A stretch of 64,000 bases of DNA from assembly GCF_013122565.1 (NCBI RefSeq), contig NZ_CP053258.1. One strand, given 5' to 3'. The number at the start of each line of letters is the position of its first letter. The stretch's first letter is position 1. This DNA is from Escherichia coli. Its GTDB lineage: Bacteria; Pseudomonadota; Gammaproteobacteria; Enterobacterales; Enterobacteriaceae. Below are positions 22,938-51,696 of this stretch, piece after piece. The notes under the pieces are model-generated. The model made no database searches and had not been told where the DNA came from. It saw nothing but the letters and a program-made list of their open reading frames with translations. A program made the translations under genes and the position numbers.

Positions 22938-22953
22938 TAGACCAGTCGGTCTA
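22938..22953. promoter_or_regulatory. NemR-box-like inverted repeat upstream of nemR
   Basis: TAGACCAGTCGGTCTA (half-sites TAGACC/GGTCTA), 15-30 nt upstream of the nemR start codon. Confidence 0.65.
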
Positions 22954-23025
22954 GCGCAAGTAAAGTTGCTACTTTGGGCATTAACAGCTTCAATAATGGT
23001 AATAATCTTATCTGAGGAGGGCGAG

Positions 23026-23265
23026 GTGGCGGAGCAATTAGAGTTCTTTCCCGTCCAGAGCCCGTGCCGGGGAATTTGCCAGTCTGACGAACGCGGATTT
23101 TGTCGCGGCTGTTTTCGTAGTCGGGATGAGCGTTTTAACTGGAATAAAATGAGCGATGGCGAAAAACAAGAGGTGCTGCGCCTTTGTCGGCAACGATTAA
23201 TGCGCAAATTACGTGCAAATAAGCCAGCGTCATCAGACGAACCGGAGCAACCATCACTCTTTTGA
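23026..23265 (+). CDS. ydhL: DUF1289-family Cys-rich small protein YdhL (79 aa)
   Basis: GTG at 23026 with GAGGAGG 6 nt upstream; translation MAEQLEFFPVQSPCRGICQSDERGFCRGCFRS...; the ORF-track 136-aa version is a 5' over-extension. Confidence 0.75.
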   Translation: MAEQLEFFPVQSPCRGICQSDERGFCRGCFRSRDERFNWNKMSDGEKQEVLRLCRQRLMRKLRANKPASSDEPEQPSLF

Positions 23266-23313
23266 GCCTAATCTTGCGTATACTCCTCTCATATCTGATA
23301 AGAGGAAGCGATT

Positions 23314-24210
23314 ATGGTTCAGCGTATTACTATTGCGCCGCAAGGCCCGGAGTTTTCCCGTTTTGTGATGGGCTACTGGCGATTGATGGACTGGAACATG
23401 TCCGCCCGCCAGCTGGTCAGTTTTATTGAAGAGCATCTGGATCTCGGCGTGACCACCGTGGACCATGCTGATATTTATGGTGGCTATCAGTGCGAAGCGG
23501 CGTTTGGCGAGGCGCTGAAACTGGCACCTCACCTGCGTGAGCGGATGGAAATAGTCAGTAAATGCGGTATCGCGACGACCGCGCGTGAAGAAAACGTCAT
23601 TGGTCATTATATCACTGACCGCGATCACATCATTAAGAGCGCCGAAGAGTCGCTAATTAATCTTGCGACCGATCATCTGGATCTGCTGTTAATCCACCGC
23701 CCGGACCCGTTAATGGATGCCGATGAAGTGGCGGACGCGTTCAAACATCTGCATCAGAGCGGCAAAGTGCGTCATTTTGGCGTATCCAACTTCACGCCCG
23801 CGCAATTTGCCCTGTTGCAATCACGCCTGCCGTTTACCCTTGCCACTAATCAGGTGGAAATATCCCCGGTACATCAGCCGTTACTGCTGGATGGCACGCT
23901 CGACCAACTGCAACAACTGCGTGTTCGTCCGATGGCGTGGTCTTGCCTTGGCGGTGGTCGTCTGTTTAATGATGATTATTTCCAGCCGCTGCGTGATGAA
24001 CTGACTGTGGTGGCAGAGGAGTTAAACGCGGGCTCGATTGAACAGGTGGTTTACGCCTGGGTACTACGTTTACCGTCGCAGCCGCTGCCAATTATCGGCT
24101 CAGGTAAAATTGAGCGCGTACGGTCAGCGGTCGAAGCAGAAACACTGAAAATGACCCGTCAACAATGGTTTCGTATCCGTAAAGCGGCACTGGGTTACGA
24201 CGTACCGTAA
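23314..24210 (+). CDS. ydhF: aldo-keto reductase YdhF
   Basis: ORF track 298 aa; AKR-family sequence. Confidence 0.88.
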   Translation: MVQRITIAPQGPEFSRFVMGYWRLMDWNMSARQLVSFIEEHLDLGVTTVDHADIYGGYQCEAAFGEALKLAPHLRERMEIVSKCGIATTAREENVIGHYITDRDHIIKSAEESLINLATDHLDLLLIHRPDPLMDADEVADAFKHLHQSGKVRHFGVSNFTPAQFALLQSRLPFTLATNQVEISPVHQPLLLDGTLDQLQQLRVRPMAWSCLGGGRLFNDDYFQPLRDELTVVAEELNAGSIEQVVYAWVLRLPSQPLPIIGSGKIERVRSAVEAETLKMTRQQWFRIRKAALGYDVP

Positions 24211-31722: not shown

Positions 31723-32997
31723 ATGGCAAGCAGTAACTTGATTAAACAATTGCAAGAGCGGGGGCTGGTAGCCCAGGTGACGGACGAGGAAGCGTTAGCA
31801 GAGCGACTGGCGCAAGGCCCGATCGCGCTCTATTGCGGCTTCGATCCTACCGCTGACAGCTTGCATTTGGGGCATCTTGTTCCATTGTTATGCCTGAAAC
31901 GCTTCCAGCAGGCGGGCCACAAGCCGGTTGCGCTGGTAGGCGGCGCGACGGGTCTGATTGGCGACCCTAGCTTCAAAGCTGCCGAGCGTAAGCTGAACAC
32001 CGAAGAAACTGTTCAGGAGTGGGTGGACAAAATCCGCAAGCAGGTTGCCCCGTTCCTCGATTTCGACTGTGGAGAAAACTCTGCTATCGCGGCGAACAAC
32101 TATGACTGGTTCGGCAATATGAATGTGCTGACCTTCCTGCGCGATATTGGCAAACATTTCTCCGTTAACCAGATGATCAACAAAGAAGCGGTTAAGCAGC
32201 GTCTCAACCGTGAAGATCAGGGGATTTCGTTCACTGAGTTTTCCTACAACCTGTTGCAGGGTTATGACTTCGCCTGTCTGAACAAACAGTACGGTGTGGT
32301 GCTGCAAATTGGTGGTTCTGACCAGTGGGGTAACATCACTTCTGGTATCGACCTGACCCGTCGTCTGCATCAGAATCAGGTGTTTGGCCTGACCGTTCCG
32401 CTGATCACCAAAGCAGACGGCACCAAATTTGGTAAAACTGAAGGCGGCGCAGTCTGGTTGGATCCGAAGAAAACCAGCCCGTACAAATTCTACCAGTTCT
32501 GGATCAACACTGCGGATGCCGACGTTTACCGCTTCCTGAAGTTCTTCACCTTTATGAGCATTGAAGAGATCAACGCCCTGGAAGAAGAAGATAAAAATAG
32601 CGGTAAAGCACCGCGCGCCCAGTATGTACTGGCGGAGCAGGTGACTCGTCTGGTTCACGGTGAAGAAGGTTTGCAGGCGGCAAAACGTATTACCGAATGC
32701 CTGTTCAGCGGTTCTTTGAGTGCGCTGAGTGAAGCGGACTTCGAACAGCTGGCGCAGGACGGCGTACCGATGGTTGAGATGGAAAAGGGCGCAGACCTGA
32801 TGCAGGCGCTGGTTGATTCTGAACTGCAACCTTCCCGTGGTCAGGCGCGTAAAACTATCGCCTCCAATGCCATTACCATTAACGGTGAAAAACAATCCGA
32901 TCCTGAATACTTCTTTAAAGAAGAAGATCGTCTGTTTGGTCGTTTTACCTTACTGCGTCGCGGCAAAAAGAATTACTGTCTGATTTGCTGGAAATAA
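31723..32997 (+). CDS. tyrS: tyrosyl-tRNA synthetase
   Basis: ATG at 31723 gives 424 aa [18 protein letters not shown]...; HIGH motif (HLGH) and KMSKS-like KFGKT; ORF-track start 31711 is a 4-codon extension. Confidence 0.95.
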
Positions 32998-45618: not shown

Positions 45619-46620
45619 TTACTTCGCTGCGGCTTTTTCTCGCAGTGCGCGTTTTTCCTCAGCGCTGAGGAAAGCCATTTCCAGACCATTAATCTGTGCC
45701 TGGCGGATTTGCTCGCGGGATAACCCAGCAGCTGGCGCGGCAACGTTATATTCGTGAATGATATCCACTCCCTGTACGCCGGGATCGTCAGTGTTAATGC
45801 TGGCACGAATGCCATGCTCAAGGAACGTTTTCAGCGGATGGGCAGCCAGCTCTGCCACGGTGCTGGTCTGAATATTGGAGGTCAGACAGGATTCAATACC
45901 AATTTGTTGCTCGGCGAGAAAATCCATCAGCGCCCGATCTTCAATGGCTTTTACGCCATGTCCAATACGCTCCGCCCCCAGTTCACGAATCGCCTGCCAG
46001 ATGCTTTCCGGCCCGGCAGCTTCGCCTGCATGGACGGTAATATGCCAGCCCGCATCACGCGCGCGGTTGAAGTGAGAAAGGAACAGACTTCCAGGGAAAC
46101 CAAGTTCATCACCGGCTAAATCAAGTGCGGTAATCTGGTCACGGTGGGCTAAAAAGGCCTCTAGCTCTTGCTGACAGGCGGCTTCGCCGAAGGTCCGGCT
46201 CATAATGCCGATAAGCTTCGCCTGCACACCAAAGGTGCGGCAACCTTCACGTACGCCATCGATCACCGCTTCGACAACACCTGCAACAGGCAGCTGATGT
46301 GCCATTGCCATGTAGCCTGGTGAAAAACGCAGCTCGACATAGTGCAGGCCGTGACGGGCTGCATCTTCAATGTTTTCAAATGCCACGCGGCGACAAGCAT
46401 CAAGAGAGGCGAGAACTTTAACGCCCCAGTCAAGTTTGGTCAGAAAGCTCACCAGATCGGGTTCGTTGGCAATGACCTGAACGTGGGGAATCAGTGTTTC
46501 CAGGGATTGTGCAGGAAGCGAGATATTATACTGGCGGCCAAGTTCAAGAATGGTCTGGGGACGAATGTTGCCATCAAGGTGGCGATGGATATCAGTTAAT
46601 GGCAGGGTGGTATCAATCAT
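45619..46620 (-). CDS. add: adenosine deaminase
   Basis: ORF track 333 aa; [28 protein letters not shown] matches Add. Confidence 0.95.
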
Positions 46621-49512: not shown

Positions 49513-50701
<1,189 letters not shown>

Positions 50702-51680: not shown

Positions 51681-51696
51681 TATTGGTTAACCAATA
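51681..51696. promoter_or_regulatory. 16-bp perfect palindrome upstream of uidR, candidate UidR (TetR-type) operator
   Basis: TATTGGTTAACCAATA; half-site ATTGGTTAAC recurs upstream of uidA at 52725-52735. Confidence 0.45.

Follow-up and report, generated by a model that had tools for sequence, protein, structure and literature searches.

NemR is a TetR-family repressor that binds an inverted-repeat operator located in its own promoter, as described in the literature on the related repressor AltR. Genomic SELEX identified nemR as the single NemR target, and deletion of nemR was found to raise nemA 15-fold and gloA 5-fold (Ozyamak 2013). According to the review literature, the operon is derepressed by a point mutation in the site bound by NemR, and glyoxals and quinones reduce the DNA binding of NemR via Cys21 and Cys116. 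Promoter mutations that are predicted to abolish NemR repression have been selected repeatedly as suppressors, and bleach sensing by NemR involves Cys106. The palindrome TAGACCnnnnGGTCTA is said to have been named the NemR box by Umezawa et al. in 2008.

The box described here resembles the AltR operator of Pantoea ananatis (CAATCTAC-N6-GTAGATTG) in that each is a single perfect inverted repeat in the promoter of the regulator's own gene and overlaps core promoter elements. AltR is a NemR-related TetR repressor that is cysteine-dependent and, as is the case for NemR, is inactivated by thiol-reactive compounds. The two operators differ, however, in half-site sequence, arm length and spacer, and AltR responds to thiosulfinates but to neither NEM nor diamide.

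The nemR box and its locus

The window analysed here is a stretch of 64,000 nucleotides of E. coli DNA, and the palindrome that it carries upstream of nemR is very probably the NemR operator, embedded in the sigma-70 promoter that drives the nemR-nemA-gloA operon. A preliminary description had reported TAGACC and GGTCTA as inverted-repeat half-sites at 22938-22953 and proposed that they serve autorepression of that operon. Both the sequence and the coordinates are exact, with TAGACCAGTCGGTCTA being the plus-strand read of 22938..22953 and TAGACCGACTGGTCTA the read in the orientation of nemR. The arms are 6 nt each, are 100% complementary and are separated by a 4-nt spacer. The centre of the box is at -22.5 with respect to the nemR ATG, and the 16 bp occupy the stretch 15-30 nt upstream, as had been claimed, with the ATG at 22923 on the minus strand. 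The description is refined in that nemR and the operon are encoded on the minus strand. No other inverted repeat was detected between 22900 and 23050, and the box is likewise the sole inverted repeat in the nemR-ydhL intergenic region, which is 102 bp long. The box and the surrounding genes are as follows.

20702..21109, minus strand: gloA coding sequence, glyoxalase I, 135 amino acids, expressed by read-through from the nemRA promoter (ORF map, synteny, literature)
21190..22287, minus strand: nemA coding sequence, N-ethylmaleimide reductase, 365 amino acids, a co-transcribed target (ORF map, synteny, literature)
22324..22923, minus strand: nemR coding sequence, a TetR-family repressor of 199 amino acids (ORF map, 97% identity to K-12 NemR, TetR_N, TetR_C_13, PDB 4yze)
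22938..22953, no strand assigned: NemR box or operator, TAGACC-N4-GGTCTA (sequence, uniqueness, K-12 identity, conservation, literature)
23026, plus strand: GTG start of ydhL, a small divergent gene (ORF map)

The neighbouring gene had been called nemR, and this holds. The encoded protein is 97% identical to K-12 NemR, it matches the NemR structure (PDB 4yze) with E=2.6e-122, and it passes the Pfam cut-offs of both TetR_N and TetR_C_13. Six substitutions distinguish it from the K-12 protein, namely Q76L, S77F, A135I, S179N, F180S and N192T, and all six cysteines (21, 98, 106, 116, 149 and 153) are present when read from the sequence. Among the NCBIfam models none that names NemR scored above its cut-off, and the best match there was to CurR, with 197 bits vs a cut-off of 300. 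The operon order was also confirmed, as nemA and gloA lie downstream of nemR on the same strand; the nemR-nemA-gloA operon with a divergent ydhL is the arrangement found in K-12.

The comparison with K-12 MG1655 reveals that the box is identical at 16/16 positions and that the identity continues from the box to the ATG, so that the same 16 bp stand at the same distance from the nemR ATG with the same -10 and start codon flanks. While the operator is without any change, there are four intergenic differences from K-12, at window positions 22955, 22961, 22978 and 23025, all of which are outside the box, in addition to the six substitutions in NemR. One difference from K-12 falls within the -35 hexamer of nemR, which reads TTGCGC here vs TTGCAC in K-12. 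The difference at 23025 is the base directly 5' of the ydhL GTG start. Of 5426 complete E. coli genomes, 5425 contain a match to the region, with 95-99% identity and the annotation nemR/ydhL, and the best of these matches are only ~99% identical. The exact 30-mer spanning the -10 element and the box is present in 5259/5426 complete E. coli genomes.

The site is already known, as it is identical to the K-12 NemR operator; it is a real, functional and ordinary operator. In the papers covered by a full-text search, the exact 16-mer was printed only in the RutR paper and nowhere as a NemR site. NemR contact with exactly these 16 bp is inferred from convergent evidence of sequence, conservation, position and literature.

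The nemR promoter and its transcript

The preliminary description placed the box simply upstream of nemR. The position is more specific, as the operator fills the spacer between the -35 and -10 elements of a promoter whose transcript is leaderless. The elements are listed below.

22954..22959, minus strand: nemR promoter -35 hexamer, TTGCGC (TTG invariant in 37 orthologues, 17-bp spacing, mapped TSS)
22931..22936, minus strand: nemR promoter -10 hexamer, TACACT (T, A and final T invariant in 37 orthologues, TSS 7 nt further on)
22921..22923, minus strand: nemR start codon ATG, with its A at 22923 equal to the published TSS (TSS maps, K-12 identity)

The -35 hexamer abuts the box directly and has an orthologue consensus of TTGCAt/TTGACC, and the -10 hexamer, with an orthologue consensus of TAcAgT (TAnnnT), begins one base after the box. 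The spacing between the two hexamers is 17 bp. With +1 set to 22923 by transfer of the published TSS, the -35 hexamer occupies -36 to -31, the box -30 to -15 and the -10 hexamer -13 to -8. The choice of 22954-22959 as the probable -35 hexamer follows from the spacing and the mapped TSS. A scan of 22600-23400 for consensus sigma-70 promoters did not find the nemR promoter, because its -35 hexamer matches the consensus at only 3/6 positions, and the promoter call rests on conservation and the published TSS. Two other assignments were rejected. A -35 element TTGAAG (22993-22988), picked by eye for nemR, has no usable -10 element at 16-18 bp, and a TTTACT/TCTACT pair is unconserved among the orthologues and is inconsistent with the mapped TSS.

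Transcription start site mapping by Kim et al. (2012, PMC3415461) placed the E. coli nemR TSS at 1724047, which is the gene start, with 15 reads and a 5'UTR of 0. In the same study the TSS of K. pneumoniae ydhM was located on the start codon with 20 reads, and the number of leaderless mRNAs was given as 18 for E. coli and 10 for Klebsiella (Kim et al. 2012, PMC3415461). In the window the -10 hexamer ends seven bases before the ATG and a Shine-Dalgarno sequence is absent upstream, which implies a leaderless mRNA. Transferring the published E. coli start site to the window, which is identical to K-12 there, likewise predicts that the nemR mRNA is leaderless. The distance from the -10 hexamer to the ATG is 6-8 nt in nearly all of the 37 orthologues and ~10 nt in three Serratia loci. 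A literature search on nemR and leaderless mRNA returned nothing relevant. The base before the nemR ATG is usually C among the 37 orthologues.

The divergent gene ydhL has a weak TSS in K-12, with 2 reads and a 5'UTR of 25 (Kim et al. 2012, PMC3415461). The equivalent position is 23001 in the window, and the ydhL promoter (22960-23028, plus strand) stands back-to-back with the nemR promoter. Candidate elements for ydhL are a -35 hexamer TTGCTA at 22966-22971 and a -10 hexamer TTCAAT at 22989-22994. Relative to the ydhL promoter the box is located at -63 to -48, outside its core, and it is upstream of both divergent TSSs.

This arrangement suggests how repression would work. With both TAGACC half-sites taken by a NemR dimer, the 17-bp spacer that separates -35 from -10 would be entirely covered, and RNA polymerase would be blocked from forming a productive complex, resulting in autorepression; steric occlusion is most likely the mode of repression. 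For K-12, modification of the NemR cysteines by electrophiles such as N-ethylmaleimide, methylglyoxal, glyoxal and quinones, or by reactive chlorine species, is reported in secondary sources to lower the affinity for DNA. Upon release of NemR the leaderless nemR-nemA(-gloA) transcript would be made.

The box among orthologues and distant homologues

A protein-based scan with one genome per species returned 80 loci, and the footprint set consists of 37 of these (L003-L039), in which the identity of NemR ranges from 95% down to 50%. The genera represented include Escherichia, Citrobacter, Enterobacter, Kluyvera, Cedecea, Morganella, Providencia, Budvicia, Yersinia and Serratia, along with others. 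When the best match per locus is taken, the box arms are identical at 12/12 positions in 28 loci, at 11/12 in 6 and at 10/12 in 3. The distance between the start codon and the centre of the box is 19.5-23.5 nt throughout the 37 loci, apart from three Serratia loci in which the start was mis-estimated. Aligned on the box, the arms carry 1.3-2.0 bits per column vs 0-0.3 bits for the flanks, and the value of 2.0 bits is reached at the TTG of the -35 hexamer, at the arm cores, and at the T, A and final T of the -10 hexamer. In all of the 37 loci nemA directly follows nemR, except at the E. albertii locus (L004), whose contig stops within nemR, and most of the loci have gloA next. The box is thus co-inherited with nemR orthologues across the 37 loci, which constitutes a phylogenetic footprint. 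The proposed autorepression of nemR-nemA-gloA is supported by this co-inheritance, by the box being the sole inverted repeat, and by its position within the core promoter.

The spacer of the box varies among the 37 loci, with the variants GACT, GAAC, GATC, GAAT, GATT, AATC, GAGC, GTTC and AACC. Its conservation is asymmetric, as positions 7 and 8 (G and A) carry 1.2 and 1.8 bits, and their partners at positions 9 and 10 carry 0.4 and 1.0 bits. A purely symmetric model of a dimer operator does not explain this asymmetry, which may be caused by constraints on the promoter spacer.

Conservation is also what distinguishes the box from a palindrome that arose by chance. The exact motif TAGACCNNNNGGTCTA occurs once in the window and in 0/100 dinucleotide-preserving shuffles. 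Less stringent counts do not discriminate. Perfect 6-4-6 inverted repeats number 30 in the window vs 17.5 +/- 4 in first-order Markov simulations, and this generic palindrome statistic, taken over the whole window, does not single out the NemR box. With two mismatches or fewer allowed, 0.84 occurrences of the motif are expected by chance and the count in the window is at chance level. The significance of the box is therefore taken from the exact motif and from conservation, and its non-random nature is shown mainly by the conservation in the 37 orthologues and the identity to K-12.

More distant NemR-like genes (L040-L082, 40-48% identity) were found in Burkholderia, Paraburkholderia, Cupriavidus, Vogesella, Leeia, Pseudomonas, Lysobacter and other genera. 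These genes feature a 15-bp operator, TAGACGAC[T/C]GGTCTA, about 20-45 nt upstream. Its half-sites are TAGAC-N5-GTCTA, as in TAGACGACTGGTCTA, and are one bp closer together than those of the 16-bp enterobacterial box. The 15-bp form is also located further from the -10 element, and it overlaps the -35 element instead of filling the spacer. As in enterobacterial nemR, a TAnnnT hexamer precedes the ATG in the distant loci, by 7-8 nt, a spacing that again suggests a leaderless transcript. Many of the distant NemR-like loci are without nemA. The operator and leaderless-promoter module is old and widespread, and it exists in a 15-bp and a 16-bp form.

RutR binding, other readings and biological meaning

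The preliminary description is further refined in that the identical 16-mer is also a documented target of RutR. ChIP-chip studies, in which RutR peaks were retained only if they were uracil-sensitive, placed the K-12 16-mer TAGACCGACTGGTCTA at -22.5 of ydhM among 20 RutR targets, and the ydhM site was also among the 16 high-affinity fragments in EMSA, which were shifted by 10-50 nM RutR (Shimada et al. 2008). The ydhM site matches the RutR consensus TTGACCAnnTGGTCAA at 11/14 positions, including the key positions 4 (A) and 13 (T), and the site in the window has 3 mismatches to this consensus. Like the RutR box, the nemR box is a 16-bp palindrome with a GACC/GGTC core that is suited to recognition by a TetR-family dimer. 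It differs from the RutR box at positions 2, 7 and 15 in the orientation of nemR (2, 10 and 15 on the plus strand). Additionally, there is a genetic link between the two systems, in that the loss of RutE was suppressed by mutations in nemR and in the nemR promoter.

These observations are relevant to two readings. In the first, the box would be shared by two TetR-family repressors, and RutR bound in the spacer of the nemR promoter would modulate nemRA-gloA in some conditions. RutR would then be released by uracil or thymine, for example during nitrogen-limited growth on pyrimidines, NemA could replace RutE in detoxifying intermediates of the Rut pathway, and the box would be an integration point for electrophile stress and pyrimidine catabolism. 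We regard such sharing as improbable. In the second, the site would be primarily a RutR operator, through which the uracil/thymine-sensing RutR would control nemRA-gloA and link pyrimidine catabolism to NemA, and this we hold to be highly improbable. An effect of RutR on transcript levels was detected only for ves (Shimada et al. 2008), and according to a review, the binding of RutR upstream of nemRA-gloA is without a role in regulating the operon. Selection for the RutR consensus is not seen at positions 2 and 15 of the 37 orthologues, which are kept as A and T (1.7-1.8 bits) where RutR has T and A. Well outside the Enterobacteriaceae, NemR-like genes are still accompanied by the box element. 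The identity between NemR and RutR is only 40% across 40 residues in the HTH region, and the overlap in their sites looks like cross-recognition of the GACC core. Based on the effect limited to ves, the review, the bases at positions 2 and 15, and the low identity of the two proteins, RutR binding is treated as real but as a secondary cross-recognition of the common GACC core, and the site is read as the NemR operator.

Sites that resemble the RutR consensus with 3 mismatches or fewer occur 7 times in the window vs 2.9 expected, and 1/100 shuffles reaches 7. The best of them, TTAACCAGATGATCAA at 32165-32180, has 2 mismatches and retains the key positions 4 and 13. RutR has many intragenic sites without known function.

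The two remaining readings can be dismissed. A hairpin acting as a terminator, an attenuator or an mRNA stability element in place of a protein-binding site has a negligible probability and is refuted by the TSS positions: the arms can pair into a 6-bp stem with a 4-nt loop, and the 52 nt around it have an MFE of -10.1 kcal/mol, but the fold is no better than that of shuffled sequences (z = -1.21, with 27/200 shuffles folding as well), the stem lacks a T-run after it and no terminator was called at the box, the box is untranscribed, with the nemR TSS downstream at the ATG and the ydhL TSS (23001) pointing away, and the bases of the arms are kept by identity, not by compensatory change. That the box is a chance palindrome without function has hardly any probability and is refuted by the conservation data; 6-4-6 inverted repeats are indeed common in the window, and the motif with up to two mismatches is expected about as often as noted above, but the exact motif is absent from all shuffles, the arms hardly vary in the upstream DNA of 37 diverged orthologues with unconserved flanks, and protein occupancy has been published for a site identical to the 16-mer.

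Other palindromes were observed in the window. The malX-malI divergent intergenic region features a perfect 16-bp palindrome, GATAAAACGTTTTATC (49549-49564), and a 14/16 near-copy of it, GGTAAAACGTTTTATC (49627-49642), which are 78 bp apart and look like paired MalI operators. A further perfect 16-bp palindrome, TATTGGTTAACCAATA, is located at 51681-51696, in the intergenic region between hdhA and uidR and ~130 bp upstream of the latter. The uidR gene encodes another TetR-family repressor, and this palindrome may be a UidR operator. The perfect 16-bp palindrome TCCTCAGCGCTGAGGA at 45656-45671 is inside the 3' end of the coding region of add (adenosine deaminase).

As the NemR operator, the box controls the nemRA-gloA operon, which is used for detoxification against electrophiles, methylglyoxal and bleach, and point mutations in the operator are known to lead to resistance to glyoxal and to suppress rutE defects. 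The finding matters little beyond correct annotation, and what it adds is the anatomy of an operator that fills the -35/-10 spacer of a promoter for a leaderless mRNA. Conservation of the module spans the Enterobacterales, with the 15-bp form extending across the Proteobacteria.
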